In this document: one piece after another, positions 7,568-62,683 of the stretch
Layout of the letters: the number at the start of each line of letters is the position of its first letter
Position numbering within the stretch: the stretch's first letter is position 1
Source: Eledone cirrhosa
Taxonomy: Eukaryota
Reading direction: 5' to 3'
DNA: 64,000 nucleotides
Assembly (NCBI GenBank): GCA_964016885.1
Contig: OZ024762.1
Coordinates: forward strand, 24,552,001 to 24,616,000
The notes under the pieces: generated by a model
What the model saw: the letters and a program-made list of their open reading frames with translations, nothing else
Databases searched by the model: none
Told to the model about the DNA's origin: nothing
Made by a program: the position numbers and the translations under genes

Positions 7568-7742
7568 TGCATGGGTTACAATATTTTTGCTGCTCTGCCT
7601 GCATGTAGTGGGTTTGTTTGGTTACCCATCAGTTGCATGTCTTACAGGTATGGCAGGGAGTATGCGGCAGACCCCTATTTGGGACACAGTATTGGACCAG
7701 TCACCGGATATGGGGTAGGTCTTCCGTTTCAATCCCAGCATG
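7568..7742 (+). promoter_or_regulatory. Cluster of RBFOX-binding (U)GCAUG elements around the 67-nt exon
   Basis: TGCATG at 7568, 7600 and 7634 (the last ends 6 nt before the acceptor AG), and GCATG at 7738 downstream of the donor. Confidence 0.7.
7648..7714 (+). CDS. RBFOX: RBFOX (Fox-1/A2BP1) family RNA-binding protein, penultimate coding exon (67 nt, phase 2 to phase 0)
   Basis: cttacAG|G TAT GGC AGG GAG TAT GCG GCA GAC CCC TAT TTG GGA CAC AGT ATT GGA CCA GTC ACC GGA TAT GGG|GTaggt = YGREYAADPYLGHSIGPVTGYG. Matches the recalled Fox-1 C-terminal motif (YGRxYAADPY...YG), has canonical splice sites and joins 22941 in frame. Confidence 0.92.
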
Positions 7743-9781: not shown

Positions 9782-10168
9782 GTAATTCCAAAGAAAAAGC
9801 AAAGGAAAAAAGAGTGCTCTATGTATAGAACAGAGCTATTTAATTAGAAAGTGAACAGATTTTAAATCTCATTTCATATTTTCTATTCATAACATCTCTG
9901 TCTGATGAATGATCCAGGCATATATTATTATTGTCTGGGATCCAGAAACCTTTGGTAATGGAGTAGTTATATTTTGTGTTGTTCACTTTCTAACTAAATA
10001 TATATATATGTATTACCGTCGGAAAGGTACAGGAAAAAAGAGTGCTCTATGTAGGCTACAGAGCTTATTAGTTATGTAATAAACAACATAAGATAATTAT
10101 TTCATTCACCAGTGGTTTCTTGAAGGCAGATGTTATGTCTGTCTTCAGTTGTCAGAATGAATAAATAA
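9782..10168. mobile_element. Two decayed copies of the same HHR-bearing family
   Basis: ggaaaaaagagtgctctatgta occurs twice. + strand: CTGATGA(9902)...GAAA(9945)CCTTTGGTA. - strand: catt CTGACAA...GAAA CCACTGG TG aatg (10100-10160, mutated core). Confidence 0.6.
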
Positions 10169-11648
10169 CCGCCCATGTTTTTCGTGGTCTACCTCTACCA
10201 CGTCTTCCTTCAACTGGCATTTCCTGGCACTTCTTCACCCATCTGTAATCCTCCATGTGCATCACATGTCCATATCACCTCAGTCTCCTCTCCCGTACAC
10301 TATCCCTCTCAGACACAGTTTCTCTCTCAATACATTTATGCTGGGTCGTTCACGCACATTTACACTGCACATCCAATGGAGCATGCTTGCCTCATTTCTC
10401 TCCAGTCGTCGCATATCCTCTGCAGTTGCTGCCCATGTCTCACTACCATGCAGCATCGCGCTCCTCACACAGGCATCATACAACCGGCCTTTCGTACGCA
10501 GGGAGAAACCCTTCTTCGTCAGCAGAGGAAGCAGCTCCCTAAACTTCTTCCAACCCGTCCTTATTCTAGATACTATGGCCTTGGAACACCCTCCTCCCAT
10601 GCTAATCTGATCTCCTAGGTACCGGAAGCTATCCACCACTTCTATAGCGCCCTCCTGTTTGAAAAATGTGTCTATCAATGCGACTTCTACTGTCTAATTT
10701 CCCTGTATATCTACTGCATACATATTTCTCCCTACCTGTTAGTTTGCCTGCTATCCCGCTACATCTCTTGTGTACCCAGGATCTGCATTGTGTGTATTTT
10801 ATAGAATTTATGCCAGTTCCTTTTCTGCATATCGAACATGGCCATTTCCCTGACGGAATCAGGGTTTTGTCCTCTTTTCTACTCATCAACACTTTTGTCT
10901 TAGCTAGGTTCACTCTCAGTCCTCTTACTTCCAACTGCTGTTTTCCATAGCCAGAATTTATTCTCTAGCTCCTCTACTTATTCTGCTATAAGAACCAGAT
11001 CGTCAGCATAGAGAAGTTCCCATGGACAGCCAGTCTTAAACTCCTCTGTTATGGCTTGGAGGACTATAATGAACAAGAGCGGGCTGAGGACCGAACCTTG
11101 ATGTACTCCTACTTCTGTCCTCACAAGCCATTCCTCAACACCTAGCTTCCTTAGGGACCACCAAATGACAGATCAGGCTACCCTATCACAGGCCTTCTCT
11201 AGGTCAACAAAGTCTAAGTATAGTGGCTTATTTTTTTCTAAGAACCTCTCTTGCAATTGTCTCACCAAGAAGAGGGCATCTGTTGTACTCTTCCCAGCCA
11301 CAAAACCAAACTGCATCTCATCTAGTTTGACCCTTTCTCTAATTAGTTGTGCTAATATCCTTTCTGCCACTTTCATAACTTGATCCATCAGTTTTATACC
11401 CCTATAATTGCTCCTCTCCAGAGCATCCCCTTTACCTTTGTAGCAATTTATGAGAATACTGCTGCACCAATCTTTGGGTATGACACCACCATATATAGCC
11501 TGATTGATGATGCGTGCAACCAGTTTAGTGCCTACGTCCCCTGATGCCTTCAGCATCTCAGCAACTATTCTCGATGGTCCAGCAGCCTTACAATTTTTCA
11601 TTTCCTTAATCGCCTCTTGGACCCTATATTCGTCAATCTCAATAGCTG
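10168..11648 (-). pseudogene. 5'-truncated, frameshifted RTE-clade LINE (reverse transcriptase fragment)
   Basis: ORF pieces KAAGPSRIVAEML, NYRGIKL, QFGFVAGKSTTDALF, FVDLEKACDRV, ELLYADDL (YADD 10999-11010), GLRVNLAKTKV, FRYLGD, MLHGSETW. Contains stops, frameshifts and an internal deletion. Confidence 0.92.
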
Positions 11649-12001
11649 TATACATATGTATACTTATTCAAAACTCAGAAATATTTATATATATATATAT
11701 ATATGTGTATGTATATAAATATTTATATATATATATGTGTGTGTGTGTGTGTATATATATGAGGGTGAGTCGATGTAGGCTTATTAAATGTTTAGTTTAT
11801 GCTTTATTTGTAGTCATAAATTTTAAAATATATATTCTACTAGGGAATTATAATTTTTTCTTCATTATTCATATTTATATACACGATACTCAATTTAAAA
11901 TATATACGTTACATTTTACTATTAAAACTTTCTTCTGACATATATTATTTTTTTTTTATCTATATATGTATGCAGGTATATATATATATATATATATATA
12001 C

Positions 12002-16885: not shown

Positions 16886-17399
16886 CTTTTAAAGAAGCAT
16901 TTTTTGTAAATTTAGCATTTTATTTTAGAGTTTGGTTTGTTAGTAGTTTTTTTTTGTTAATTTTATTTTTTGTTATTTTTATTTTTTGTTATTTTTATTT
17001 TTTTGTTTTCCTTTTTCTTTTTGCACTTTTTTTTGTTTTTCATTGTTTCACTGGCTTTATATAAACTAAACAACCAAAATATGTTGGCTGCATAGTGTAT
17101 ATATATGTGTGTGGTGTGTATATATAAATACATATATCTATATCCATATATATATATATATAAATAGAAAAAATGAAACAAAATTTCATTTCCCACTCTT
17201 AGTATGGCTGTTACTTAAATATAAGTATGTACGTGTACATACATATATGTATACAGACGTACAGTAGTATGTATATATATATACGTACATGCACATATGG
17301 ATTCACCGAACATTTATTATAATGCTCGGTGTGTTTGTAAACAAACATCCCGTATTAAGCCGTAGTGTCCAGCAACCATCGTTGCTCGTTTGTTCAACA

Positions 17400-17468
17400 C
17401 TGACAAAGGAACGCTGTACTAGTTTCAAGCTTATTAGCTATCATCAGCAATGTATACCTTCCTGCCAG
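17400..17468 (-). ncRNA. Type I hammerhead ribozyme (inverted partner copy)
   Basis: Reverse complement reads attg CTGATGA tagctaataagctt GAAA CTAG TA cagc. TCATCAG is at 17441-17447. Confidence 0.72.
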
Positions 17469-17708
17469 ATTGTTGAACGTCTGAAAGTATGTACTTTCCT
17501 TATGCATATTAACGGCTGAGCAGCCTAATTTGCATATCCAGTGAGTTAATCGGACGGGCTCACCGAAAACGATAAACGGAAAAAAATGAAACAAAATTTT
17601 GTTTCATTTTTATCGTTTTCGGTGCACCCGGCCGATTAACCCACTCGATATGCAAATTGGGCTACTCAGCCGTTAATATGCATAAGATAAGTATATACGT
17701 TCAACAAT

Positions 17709-17777
17709 CTGGCAGGAAGGTATACGTTGCTGACGATAGCTAATAAGCTTGAAACTAGTACAGCCTTCCTTTGTCAG
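17709..17777 (+). ncRNA. Type I hammerhead ribozyme, minimal, with palindromic stem III
   Basis: ctggcaggaagg-tatac-gttg CTGACGA(17730-36) t-agct-aata-agct-t GAAA(17751-54) CTAG TA| cagccttcc-tt-tgtcag. Predicted cleavage after GUA at 17760. Confidence 0.75.
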
Positions 17778-18068
17778 TGTTGAACAAATGAGCAACGATG
17801 GTTGCTAAACACTATGGCTTAATACGGGATATTTGTTTACAAACACACCGAGCATTACAATAAATGTTCGGTGAATCCATACGTACATATATATATGTGT
17901 GCATGTATATATATATATACATACTACTGTACGTCTGTATGCATATATGTATGTACGCGTACATACTTATATATATATATATTGTTTCTTTTTATTTAAA
18001 AATGAATTATTAATTACTTTATATGTATGAATATATATATATATATGTGTGTATGTATATATATATAT

Positions 18069-18099
<31 letters not shown>

Positions 18100-18318
18100 A
18101 TATATATATATATATAATATATGGGAAATGAAATTTTGTTTCATTTTTTCCGTATATATATTATATATATATTATATATTATATATATATTATATATTAT
18201 ATATATATATATATATTATATATTATATATATATATATTATATATTATATATATATATATATAATATATGGGAAATGAAATTTTGTTTCATTTTTTCCGT
18301 ATATATATATTATATATA

Positions 18319-18354
<36 letters not shown>

Positions 18355-22940: not shown

Positions 22941-22985
22941 GCTACTGTTTACCGAGGTGGGTACCAGCGGTTTGCACCCTACTGA
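22941..22985 (+). CDS. RBFOX: RBFOX terminal coding exon ATVYRGGYQRFAPY* (PY-type NLS)
   Basis: Pyrimidine tract then ttacAG|GCT ACT GTT TAC CGA GGT GGG TAC CAG CGG TTT GCA CCC TAC TGA. YRGGYxRFAPY is the hallmark RBFOX C-terminus. Confidence 0.95.
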   Translation, partial: ATVYRGGYQRFAPY

Positions 22986-30738: not shown

Positions 30739-30990
30739 ATATTTATTAAAATAACAGATTAAAGTTTATGCAAAGAATCGCTGCTTTCACCCTTAACGGG
30801 ATCTTCTGACACTAACAAAGTCAATCTGTAAACGCAGAAGTATCGTCTTCCTGTCTTCCTCCGGTTGCAACGTTTTTTGAAATATTCACTTCTGTGTTTA
30901 CAGATTGATTTTGTTAGTTTCAGAAGATCCCGTTAAGGGTGAAAGCAGCGATTCTTTGCTTAAACTTTAATCTGTTATTTTAATAAATAT
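30739..30990. mobile_element. Foldback element (~103-bp arms, 46-nt spacer) with HHR-like variant core
   Basis: Arms 30739-30841 and 30888-30990. Right arm reads agttt CAGAAGA t-ccc-gttaa-ggg-t GAAA gcag-cgattct-ttgc TT aaact. Confidence 0.55.
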
Positions 30991-38376: not shown

Positions 38377-38404
<28 letters not shown>

Positions 38405-38408
<4 letters not shown>

Positions 38409-38552
38409 ACAAATTTAATATAGAAATGGGTTTTACAGGTCTAGAACTGTTTCCTTTGAAGAAAATCAGTTCTAGTCCTGTAGAAGCCATTTCTATATTA
38501 AATTTGTTGTATACATTCTACTAATGTATTGAGTACCTTACTTACTGTGGTT
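38405..38552. mobile_element. Short foldback of the ctacaggactagaac / gtattgagtac repeat family
   Basis: Arms 38405-38449 and 38467-38513. Relatives at 3190-3290, 4580-4632, 46118-46290 and 61660-61793. Confidence 0.55.
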
Positions 38553-49321: not shown

Positions 49322-49654
49322 AAATGCTAAAGGATTTTTTAATGTTCAACATAGAAGGAAGGTACTTAGCCTTGTGGTTAGAGCTTTTGGCTCATGATTG
49401 TCAAGCTGATGGTTTGATCTCTGGGATGGGCAGTGAGTTATGTTCTTAAGCGAGGTGCATTTCCTGTTGCTCCAGTCATCTCAGCTCAAAACAAATAAGG
49501 ATCAGTACCAGGGCAGCTCAACCTTGCAATGAACTGGCATCCCATCTAGGGGTGAGGGTTGTAATCTCAGTCATTTAACACTTCTTGATACCAGGATAGT
49601 CTGTGACCTGATGAGCTGCTAGTTTTGAAACTAGCAGCTCACTTAAATAGAATG

Positions 49655-59161: not shown

Positions 59162-60074
59162 ACAGGGTACGGACAATATTTGTTCGCAAGATTACTGTCC
59201 AGGAAAAGATAACACAGTAGTTTTATTTTTTAAGATATATTTATCAAACTTGGGTCAGTTTGTCTTCATGACTTGTTCTTTCGATCTCACTTGATAAACC
59301 CGCCATTGGCTTTGATGGCAGCCTCGGACTGTCCCCCGACTTAAACCCCTAAAGGCACTTGTGATCCTGGTCTTCAGATTGTCTTTCGTATTGCAGCTAG
59401 ATCTGTTGGTGTCTCGTTCCATTGCGCCCCACACAAAGAAGTCGAGGGGTTGCAGTCAGGCGAGCTGGGAGGCCAGATGTCTGAGAAAAACCACAGCATG
59501 TCTGGCTCCAGTGGGTGTTTCAACTTGTTGATCAGCTTCTTTGCGTGCTTCAGTCGCTTTTCTTGCATCGCTTTTGACAGAAATTGTCCTTTCCTCATCT
59601 TGTATGAAACGTAGCGAATATCTTCATGTACCACCAGCCTAATGAACTTGTCATCCACGCCTTTCTCCCTTGCAATGGCACGCATCGACTTGTTAGGTTC
59701 ATTGTTGATGATATCCTGAACTTCAGCGACAAACTTGGGCGTTCTGAAGGCGTCAGATCGTCGATCATGTGTTTTCCTCTCTGATATTGCTTCGAATCCT
59801 GAATCTTCCAATTCCTTTCTGACCTTTTCCACCATTTTCCTGCTGATGCTGAGAAAGTGTGAAATTTCCTTATTTGTTCTCCCGGCACGGATTCCAAGAA
59901 GAACTCTGTCTCTTCCACAAATTTGAAAGTTCAAAATTATTCATAATCAATTATTCTGAAAATAAATAATGGAAATATAGTCAGTTTTTATGAAGACAAG
60001 AGTGACAACGGAAGTAAATAAAATTTGCATAAAATTAGCAGTTGAAAATTATGAACAAAAATCGTCCAGACACT

Positions 60075-60764: not shown

Positions 60765-61106
60765 TCATCATTTGATCATTTCATTTTACGTCCACTTTTC
60801 CCTGCTTGCAAGGGTGGGACAGGAACTGATTCTGGCTTAATTTCTACAGCTGGATGCCCTTCCTAACACCAACCTCATTTACAGTGAGTGCTGGGTGCTT
60901 TTTTCCCGTGGCACCTCCACGACCACTTTGCAGTGGAATGATAGGGACCCCAGTCCCTATCATCTCATTTCTACAGCTGAGTAAACTGGAGCAATGTGAA
61001 ATAAAGTGTCTTGCTCAAGGAAACAACACATCACCCGGTCCGAGAATTGAACTCACAACCTTTCGATTGCAAGGCCAATGCTCTAACCACTAAGCCATGT
61101 GCCTCC
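60765..61106 (-). mobile_element. SINE family B, full length
   Basis: Same sequence as 14533-14872. Confidence 0.87.
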
Positions 61107-61415
61107 ATATATATAAATATATATGTATGTGTGTATGTATCTATATGTATATATATATATATGTATGTATATATATATATATATATGTATCTTTGTATAT
61201 ATATATATGTATGTGTATATATATATATATACGTATATATATATATATGTATATATATATATACGTATATATATATATGTATATATATATATACGTATAT
61301 ATATATATGTATATATATATATACGTATATATATATATATATATATATATACATACATATATATATATATACATATATATATTAATGTCACCTAGACATG
61401 ACATATTGTTCAAAC

Positions 61416-61495: not shown

Positions 61496-61833
61496 CTACA
61501 TGCCCATATATGGACTGTATACTGTGGTTATTTCCGCTAGATTTTTGCCGTTCCAATACTGGTGGCTTAGTTCGGATCTAGCTGGCGAAACGGCTGGAGC
61601 TCAGATGTTGGGGTCCTGAATCTTGCCTGCTCATATATGTGAGTGCCGCATTCAATCATGGATAACCACAGTACGTGAAGTACTCAATATGTTAGTAGAG
61701 TGTATACAAAATTTAATAAAGAAATGGCTGCTACAGGACTAGAACGGATGATTTCTTACTAATGAAATGGTTCTAGTCCTGTAGATGCCATTTATATATG
61801 TTTATATTTATATATAACTATATATAAATAGTT

Positions 61834-62166
61834 GGCACATGGCTTAGTGGTTAGAGCATTGGCCTTACAATCGAAAGGTTGTGAGTTCAATTCTCAGACC
61901 GGGTGATGTGTTGTTTCCTTGAGCAAGACACTTTATTTCATATTGCTCCAGTTTACTCAGCTGTAGAAATGAGGTGATAGGGACTGGGGTCCCTATCATT
62001 CCACTGCAAAGTGGTCGTGGAGGTGCCACAGCAAAAAAGCACCCAGCACTCACTGTAAATGAGGTTGGTGTTAGGAAGGGCATCCAGCTGTAGAAATCAA
62101 GCCAGCATCAGTTCCCGTCCCACCCTTGCAAGCAGGGAAAAAGCGGACGTAAAATGAAATGATGAT
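61834..62166 (+). mobile_element. SINE family B, full length (inverted relative to 60765)
   Basis: ggcacatggcttagtggttagagc...ggacgtaaaatgaaatgatgat. Confidence 0.87.
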
Positions 62167-62457
62167 ATATGTATGTTTATATTTATATAAATATATATAT
62201 TATAATAGAATATAAAAGAAAAATCAACATAGATATATAGATATATGTGTTCAAATCGTAAGGGACCGGATTCTCTAAGGGGAAAAGAATACTAACTATA
62301 GACAATTGGGTTCACTTGTCTCAATTTAAGAAAATAAATACAAACCGGAATTGGGGTACCTACCAATCACCCAGACAACTTGTTGTAGAGGTAATGGATA
62401 TACATACACACACATATATATATTTATAGTTATGTAATAAACAACATAAGGCAATTA

Positions 62458-62514
62458 TTCCATTTACCAGTGGTTTCTTAAAAGCAAAAAATTTTGCTTT
62501 CAATCCTCAGAATG
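62458..62514 (-). ncRNA. Type I hammerhead ribozyme (identical inverted copy)
   Basis: Core lies in the left arm of a perfect 89-bp inverted repeat. Stem I is only 4 bp on this strand. Confidence 0.7.
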
Positions 62515-62531
62515 TAAACAGACCAGGATTT

Positions 62532-62591
62532 TTTCATTCTGAGGATTGAAAGCAAAATTTTTTGCTTTTAAGAAACCACTGGTAAATGGAA
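62532..62591 (+). ncRNA. Type I hammerhead ribozyme, canonical core
   Basis: tttcatt CTGAGGA(62539-45) ttgaaagcaaaa-tt-ttttgcttttaa GAAA(62572-75) CCACTGG TA| aatggaa. Stem I 7 bp, stem II ~10-12 bp, short stem III, GUA cleavage after 62584. Confidence 0.8.
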
Positions 62592-62683
62592 TAATTGCCT
62601 TATGTTGTTTATTACATAACTATTAAGCTCTGTTACCTACATAGAGCACTCTTTTTTCCTGGACTTTTCCGACGGAATTACTT

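Follow-up and report, generated by a model that had tools for sequence, protein, structure and literature searches.

Hammerhead ribozymes (HHRs) of the amniote HH9/HH10 type are intronic, conserved and single-copy, and Luense et al. 2017 reportedly described hammerheads of Penelope-like elements (PLEs) that cleave as dimers. The closest systems to the locus analysed here are the metazoan non-LTR retrozymes, especially HHR_Amex2/Rtz_353 of the axolotl and the repeats of 350-390 bp found in mussels (PMC7229834). In the work in which retrozymes were defined, an axolotl HHR with a U-U at the base of helix II showed 22% cleavage per hour as a monomer, and more as a dimer (PMC7229834). Retrozymes and the pseudo-LTRs (pLTRs) of PLEs are related sequences (Li et al. 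2026, bioRxiv 10.64898/2026.07.22.740005); in Xenopus, 42-44% of the retrozyme copies lie in introns and one of nine dimers cleaved (bioRxiv 10.64898/2026.07.22.740005). According to Craig et al. 2021 (PMC8557442), PLE insertions target (TA)n, have a tail of 30-40 bp and bear an inverted 5'-truncated copy at their 5' end, and their head-to-head inverted repeats with junction palindromes have been read as self-priming (Arkhipova et al. 2013, PMC3846280). The tail has been tied to two reverse-transcription start sites in a study in which AT-rich DNA was cut and the HHR cut only with the protein present (Frangieh et al. 2024, PMC11167929). HHR pairs on opposite strands, 100-700 bp apart, are also known, single minimal HHR motifs giving no cleavage in vitro (Cervera and de la Pena 2014, PMC4209133). 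Among cephalopods, 31 Penelope-like families have been active recently in Octopus vulgaris (PMC13282606), the Craig supplement (PMC8557442) contains Naiad and Hydra PLEs of octopus that prefer (TA)n, and 235 Rfam hammerhead hits were counted, without description, in the giant squid paper (PMC6962438).

Here, an inverted repeat carrying two HHR motifs was analysed in a 64-kb window (the whole stretch of Eledone cirrhosa DNA under study, to which all positions refer). The locus consists of two head-to-head copies of a ~413-bp repeat with an HHR motif, probably a non-autonomous retrozyme put into (TA)n by PLE enzymes and predicted to be inert in RBFOX pre-mRNA. It fits the PLE insertion and retrozyme picture in each testable feature, except for having no ORF and only one full unit; it is likely a decayed insertion, one of a very large number.

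Geometry of the inverted repeat and its hammerhead motifs

The inverted repeat is near-spacerless, its arm 17219-17593 matching the arm 17594-17972 in 336 of 357 aligned columns of a global alignment; the arms differ by 21 substitutions and by indels of 2, 16, 8, 8 and 6 nt. The original prediction of a ~750-nt spacerless inverted repeat with one HHR core per arm is confirmed. Beyond the limits proposed at the time, 17219-17972, the element reaches 17167 and likely 18152/18299 (Table 1). The true symmetry centre lies at 17596/17597, and a 6-bp palindrome, AAATTT (17594-17599), is the overlap between the left and right copies. The right copy ends within the microsatellite-like part, before the last ~24 nt of the unit, and on the left side mapped-read depth is unbroken from 17159 into the arm. 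The tail motif (29-31 bp) has no copies within the 64-kb window beyond the three listed, the third of which is likely a local tandem duplication inside the AT tract. The target-site duplication is unreadable because the insertion sits in a microsatellite. The longest stop-to-stop frames over the element reach 83 aa, plus a microsatellite frame of 119 aa and, judged by frame lengths, no ORF with reverse transcriptase (RT) and GIY-YIG adjoins the element at the locus. ARAGORN returned no tRNA genes on 17100-18350, a result from which decayed tRNA-like SINE heads would escape.

Table 1. Features of the locus and detected exons of its host gene (positions in the window).
Feature	Position	Strand	Remarks
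Left copy	17187-17599	-	one complete repeat unit, motif to motif; 413 nt, 37% GC
Right copy	17594-17975	+	5'-truncated; 8 nt missing near start
Junction palindrome	17582-17611	both	head-to-head junction; perfect, 30 bp
Tail motif	17167-17195	-	29 nt; repeats the unit's first bases at the left copy's 3' end and runs into (TA)n
Tail motif, second copy	18122-18152	+	inverted relative to 17167-17195; within (TA)n
Tail motif, third copy	18269-18299	+	147 bp past the second
11-bp hairpin with overlapping AATAAA	17846-17873	+	near the unit's 3' end; from sequence
Mirror of the AATAAA hairpin (11 bp)	~17304-17331	-	hairpin predicted in the left-copy fold
Microsatellite-like part of the unit, degenerate (TA)/(CA)	17876-17975	+	family reads cover the region
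Microsatellite-like part, other arm	17216-17295	-	
Type I HHR, left copy	17410-17453	-	core CUGAUGA at 17447; predicted cleavage 17417/17416
Type I HHR, right copy	17724-17767	+	core CUGACGA at 17730; predicted cleavage 17760/17761; sense in RBFOX pre-mRNA
RBFOX penultimate coding exon	7649-7714	+	identical (100%) to Argonauta hians RBFOX residues 256-277
RBFOX last coding exon	22941-22985	+	100% identity to residues 278-291; ends RFAPY and stop

Both HHRs read outward from the centre of the repeat, with 283 bp between their cores. In each arm the CUGANGA core, GAAA and NUH stand in type I order; after the core come a U, helix II (4 bp, capped by a loop of 4 nt), a second U, GAAA, the CUAG palindrome and the GUA site. 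Our own type I HHR descriptor was scanned over the 64-kb window and over 300 first-order Markov random windows; in the window its matches were confined to the two HHRs, and the 300 random 64-kb windows gave a single match. The parts predicted for each arm, i.e., core, 4-bp stem II with a U-U mismatch, GAAA, palindromic stem III and GUA, are confirmed by sequence and descriptor. Ten of the 12 CUGANGA...GAAA strings in the window were rejected, failing the helix descriptor. A CUGAUGA...GAAA string at 49608-49645, which also fails it, lies in a strong 13-bp hairpin (z -4.7) and ends in the CUAG also seen in the two HHRs. Rfam Hammerhead_HH9 aligned over its full length at 17712-17778, but weakly, with 16.7 bits (E 0.047) against a gathering score of 52. 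Hammerhead was absent from an Rfam scan of 2.2 kb, which returned only sub-threshold miRNA hairpins; these miRNA matches were rejected, all of them being below the gathering score and reflecting hairpins and microsatellites.

As in the minimal HHRs of PLEs, the CUAG palindrome (positions 15.2-16.2) and an extra base, U, after A9 are both present. Other features of those motifs are absent: helix II has 4 bp instead of 7-8 and is closed by U-U then A-U, and there is no G10.1-C11.1. Of the PLE-type "minimal" HHR with palindromic stem III that had been announced, the palindrome stands, and the HHR is closer to the canonical retrozyme/metazoan type than to the minimal PLE type. In the isolated ribozyme, the predicted pair probability of helix II is 0.89-0.99 and that of helix I is near 0, and helix III as a monomer has 1-2 bp. 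The ribozyme region of the plus strand folds better than all of 200 shuffles (z -4.4); a minus-strand 96-mer, cut inside its own stem, has no fold advantage over shuffles (z -0.6).

The repeat family in sequencing runs

Four sequencing runs were mapped on 16900-18000 at 85% likeness: the contigs of X1, X4 and X6 and the RAD-seq reads of X21. X1 and X21 are from one organism, and X4 and X6 from two others; X1, possibly the source sample, does not count as independent of the window. Of the 23 runs listed, 20 (16 studies, no RNA run among them) contain all or some of the stretch; the mapped runs are three of these 20 and one chosen by species label, and no evidence is drawn from the small shares of the remaining 17. 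On the 1.1-kb stretch, 13,849 of 17,142,217 X1 contigs and 77,333 of 12,467,656 X21 reads were mapped, together with 198 of 6,943,267 X4 contigs and 26 of 23,643,904 X6 contigs; summed contig depth is not equated with copy number, and the proportion of reads in RAD-seq data is skewed by the positions of restriction sites. The family is a very high-copy ~413-bp repeat, present in at least three organisms and not specific to this locus. The unit shows the traits of non-LTR retrozymes, with a length within 150-450 bp, a GC content below 50% and one type I HHR per unit. An exact-pattern search of metagenome, viral and genome contig sets gave no matches, as expected for an animal repeat.

The arrangement of units was read from loose ends and joints, opposite-strand joints, attributed to the palindrome in the reference, being disregarded. 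Among the loose ends listed (24 of 757), 57 X1 contigs and one X4 contig break off before 17609, and three X4 contigs behind 17585/17586; all continue into the 17168-17200 sequence. Among the joints listed (15 of 85), 17585 is joined to 17206 (back 380), tail to head, by one X1 contig (57 letters on the short side) and nine X21 reads. Head-to-tail junctions exist in the family DNA, seen in contigs or reads from two organisms. Against a family that is mainly tandem, the 2,026 X21 loose ends before 17609 show poor agreement (0.66) in the letters upstream of AAATTT; many copies may thus start at AAATTT in unrelated flank, not in tandem. The locus itself comprises one unit and 29 nt on the minus strand and one truncated unit on the plus strand; because only one unit is full, the "two consecutive units" on one strand by which Li 2026 recognise active retrozymes are not found there. 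Among the loose ends listed, 10,592 X21 reads diverge before 17389, just 3' of the outer stem of the ribozyme, with an agreement of 0.94; this divergence points to a second large subfamily with a common HHR region.

The family reads also bear on helix I, for which four pairs are possible on the plus strand, three on the minus strand and six with the family-majority bases, helix I then being followed by a UAU internal loop that is aligned to the HH9 bulge. At the locus, pair 5 is broken (C-C) at 17765 in the right-copy HHR and pair 4 (A-C) at 17451 in the left-copy HHR. The pairing base at 17765 is carried by 487/508 and 4,373/4,759 X21 reads and by 61% of the X1 depth; that at 17451 by 5,642/6,120 and 5,907/6,099 X21 reads and by 95% of the X1 depth. 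At pair 3, many family reads have G-U where the locus has U-G (17450, 17414), a two-sided change taken from an unphased table. No variant rows fall in 17415-17449 (core, helices II and III) among the 40 of 100 listed, and no weight is placed on this.

Alleles that are minor in the family but common to both arms were found at 17471 (~1-7% of depth) and 17593 (11-28%), the latter allele being present in all five motif copies. Therefore, both arms point to one source copy. Transitions make up 16 of the 21 arm substitutions, five of them at CpG as read from their contexts, and at several of the differing sites one arm carries the family allele. Seven of the transitions give G-U on the plus strand and nine on the minus strand (p 0.80); this split gives no indication that the sense hairpin is under selection, at the low power of 16 sites.

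The RBFOX intron and the predicted behaviour of its RNA

The element lies inside a 15-kb intron between the last two detected coding exons of RBFOX, 9.5 kb past one and 5 kb before the other. The 100% protein matches of these exons (Table 1) confirm, for the detected exons, the placement in the last RBFOX coding intron, and the RFAPY C-terminus is conserved in Fox-1 proteins (PMC2777236). A Pfam search of two 22-aa exon translations returned no family. In two mollusc-like RBFOX proteins (P0002, P0006), a further 17-19 residues separate the parts encoded by the last two exons; these were sought in this intron and not found (best ungapped scores 19 and 15), so that "last coding intron" is limited to the detected exons. 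The extra residues suggest a cassette exon or an alternative splice site. Three TGCATG (RBFOX-binding) motifs stand at 7568-7639, at most 89 nt upstream of the penultimate exon, the whole window containing 26 (clustering post hoc P ~8e-6). The penultimate exon is therefore likely regulated, and the cluster likely reflects autoregulation by analogy with Fox-2, for which autoregulation is known (PMC2777236).

Other repeats in the window form inverted structures as well. At 30739-30990, a spacerless head-to-head palindrome (84%) has AATAAA near the outer end of each arm; its arms hold a hammerhead-core-like string with A replacing U4 and a 3-bp helix II closed by U-U, and a stable HHR fold is not predicted there. 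It is likely another PLE-type end. Further spacerless palindromes stand at 62423-62626 (94%) and 38400-38516 (86%), the former resembling ~10065-10150, the end of a LINE remnant. This broken remnant, presumably RTE-like (10050-11667 on the minus strand, RVT_1 match E 1.2e-6), lies antisense within the RBFOX intron. A Tc1/mariner-like transposase remnant was found at 59374-59940 on the minus strand (HTH_Tnp_Tc3_2, E 1e-4). An inverted SINE-like pair, 60775-61124 / 61810-62163 (354 nt, 94.6% identical, 686 nt apart), likely gives dsRNA if transcribed.

In the RBFOX transcript, the whole hairpin has a predicted folding energy of -563 kcal/mol on the plus strand, and the pair probabilities of HHR helices I and II are predicted to be 0 in its ensemble. 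Enforcing the HHR helices within 17380-17800 is predicted to cost ~60 kcal/mol. In folds of successive prefixes, the inter-arm helix becomes the minimum-energy fold, with 21 pairs, once 27 nt of the second arm are made, i.e., it is predicted more than 100 nt ahead of the synthesis of the HHR core. The folding model may underestimate HHR folds generally, as its probability for helix I stays close to 0 when the ribozyme is folded alone; the modelled trapping of the sense HHR in the hairpin would nevertheless be robust to this, given the ~60 kcal/mol gap. The idea that the antisense arm is made first and traps the sense ribozyme thus holds as a prediction, illustrated by the null pair probabilities and the ~60 kcal/mol.

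As the two HHRs are on opposite strands, neither transcript contains a cis dimer. The proposed competition between hairpin, editing and self-cleavage is not supported, in view of the early helix, the lack of a cis dimer, the C-C mismatch and the abundance of a repeat lying far from exons, and a cleavage/editing switch at RBFOX is unlikely. In squid, ubiquitous edit sites outside coding sequence fall mainly on repeats within introns and 3' UTRs (PMC9068888); editing typically acts on inverted repeats that lie close together (PMC9989829). By analogy, ADAR editing of the hairpin is plausible and would be passive on present evidence. Three further spacerless palindromes and the inverted SINE-like pair offer similar duplexes in the window.

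Origin of the locus and comparison with known systems

The inverted 5'-truncated head-to-head copy, the junction palindrome, the 29-31 nt tail motifs and the (TA)n surroundings are features as in PLE insertions, and support the Penelope-like origin, with inverted type I HHRs, that was first proposed. In the preferred scheme, tandem arrays would be transcribed, cut by dimeric HHRs, for which the CUAG palindrome would give a 6-bp intermolecular helix III, and circularised. A PLE reverse transcriptase/endonuclease would then have nicked (TA)n and made a copy a little longer than one unit (413 nt and the 29-nt tail), and fold-back or template switching at AAATTT in the unit head would have led to the inverted 5'-truncated second copy. 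Both arms would come from this one source and would have drifted neutrally since then. During RBFOX transcription, the antisense arm, made first, is predicted to zip up the emerging sense arm so that the ribozyme never folds, and the ~350-bp duplex would serve ADAR as a passive substrate until discarded with the intron.

A reading close to this scheme sees the arms not as units of a tandem retrozyme but as 3' pseudo-LTRs, each 5'-truncated ahead of the ORF, that stem from an autonomous PLE of Neptune, Poseidon or Hydra type; the insertion chemistry would be the same and the family label would differ. PLEs are known for the head-to-head arrangement, the palindrome at the junction, a tail like that of 29-31 bp here, the AATAAA and the (TA)n target; retrozymes are related to pLTRs (bioRxiv 10.64898/2026.07.22.740005), and many reads begin near one point in mixed flank. 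However, reads run from the unit head into the unit's own tail and not into an ORF, the HHR is without the 7-8 bp helix II and G10.1-C11.1 of PLE minimal HHRs, and the HHR given for Hydra-1_Obim differs. No match to an octopus Naiad or Hydra consensus was found either, six short exact strings (five from the element) being unmatched in the supplement with Naiad_Obim, Naiad_Ovul and Hydra-1_Obim, a weak test in which line breaks and cut runs hide matches. This reading is considered unlikely. A single retrozyme insertion made palindromic later by DNA repair, through fold-back priming or fork template switching at AAATTT, would accommodate the shared minor alleles as well, and other repeat types in the window form spacerless palindromes, one matching the LINE-remnant end. 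It is very unlikely, in that the duplicated part stops inside the unit, without unique flank, and the tail copies face outward on both sides, as in described PLE insertions. Finally, PLE inverted structures are known to trouble assemblies (PMC8557442), and no mapped read or contig of the four runs spans the whole locus, so that the junction rests on the assembly sequence. That assembly produced the palindrome, by way of fold-back reads or the collapse of repeat copies, is nonetheless exceedingly improbable: the arms differ by 21 substitutions (16 transitions, five at CpG) and 8-16 nt indels, and one arm carries the family allele at several differing sites, which argues against fold-back of a single molecule. 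The earlier argument from the arm mismatches is thereby upheld.

As for function, the locus might have been co-opted as a switch, with competition among duplex, ADAR editing and self-cleavage deciding the RBFOX 3'-end output. The very stable duplex predicted (-563 kcal/mol), the intact catalytic core letters of both arms, the three TGCATG near a likely regulated upstream exon and the squid non-coding editing that falls largely on intron and 3' UTR repeats (PMC9068888) speak for it. Against these stand the lack of a same-strand dimer partner, the helix I mismatch of the sense HHR, the predicted ~60 kcal/mol opposing the active fold, the absence of a G-U bias towards the sense hairpin and the distances of 9.5 and 5 kb to known exons. 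Editing able to open the duplex would also be expected to strike core adenosines; single minimal HHRs did not cleave in vitro (PMC4209133), and only one of nine Xenopus retrozyme dimers did (bioRxiv 10.64898/2026.07.22.740005). Such a switch is scarcely credible. We give little more credence to a speculative variant in which the inverted arm acts as a built-in antisense lock letting the sense ribozyme persist, the RBFOX duplex having been co-opted so that ADAR editing tunes last-intron processing of this master neural splicing factor in octopods. If the antisense lock were true, sense intronic HHR copies would survive genome-wide mainly behind a preceding inverted copy, and the large family size would ease a test of this on any octopod assembly.

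Regarding novelty, the head-to-head arrangement and the HHR type are already known, whereas for the likely octopod retrozyme family itself our search of openly available papers and some of their supplements brought up no report; Repbase/Dfam, other supplements or subscription journals may contain it. No cephalopod family appears in the text consulted of PMC7229834, and no cephalopod is named in the two files searched of the supplement to the 2014 study (PMC4209133). Through this family, the range of retrozyme circular RNAs would come to include the animals in which A-to-I editing is heaviest.

Compared with amniote HH9/HH10 (Rfam RF02275), the locus has the same type I topology and intronic position and a full-length but weak HH9 alignment; unlike these motifs with their stable helix III, it is a decayed copy of an abundant repeat, buried in a hairpin. 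Like the dual minimal HHRs of Schistosoma mansoni (PMC4209133), it has two HHRs on opposite strands, 283 bp apart here and 100-700 bp there, but its helix II has 4 bp instead of 7-8, G10.1-C11.1 is absent, and the helix I of the family has 6 bp and an internal loop. The short junction overlap, the ~30-bp tail and the AT-rich/(TA)n target are in line with PLE insertions with an inverted 5' pLTR (PMC3846280, PMC8557442, PMC11167929), which differ in that no RT or GIY-YIG ORF is found at this locus. The likeness to non-LTR retrozymes extends to the 413-bp, 37% GC unit without notable ORF, the single type I HHR per unit, the very high copy number and the head-to-tail junctions of the family, the U-U mismatch at the base of helix II being as in axolotl Amex2 and the weak palindromic helix III as in Amex1. 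In contrast to tandem retrozymes, the locus is head-to-head with only one full unit, and the unit contains a microsatellite-like stretch. A retrozyme-type unit with the full insertion signature of PLEs supports the idea that PLE enzymes move retrozymes.
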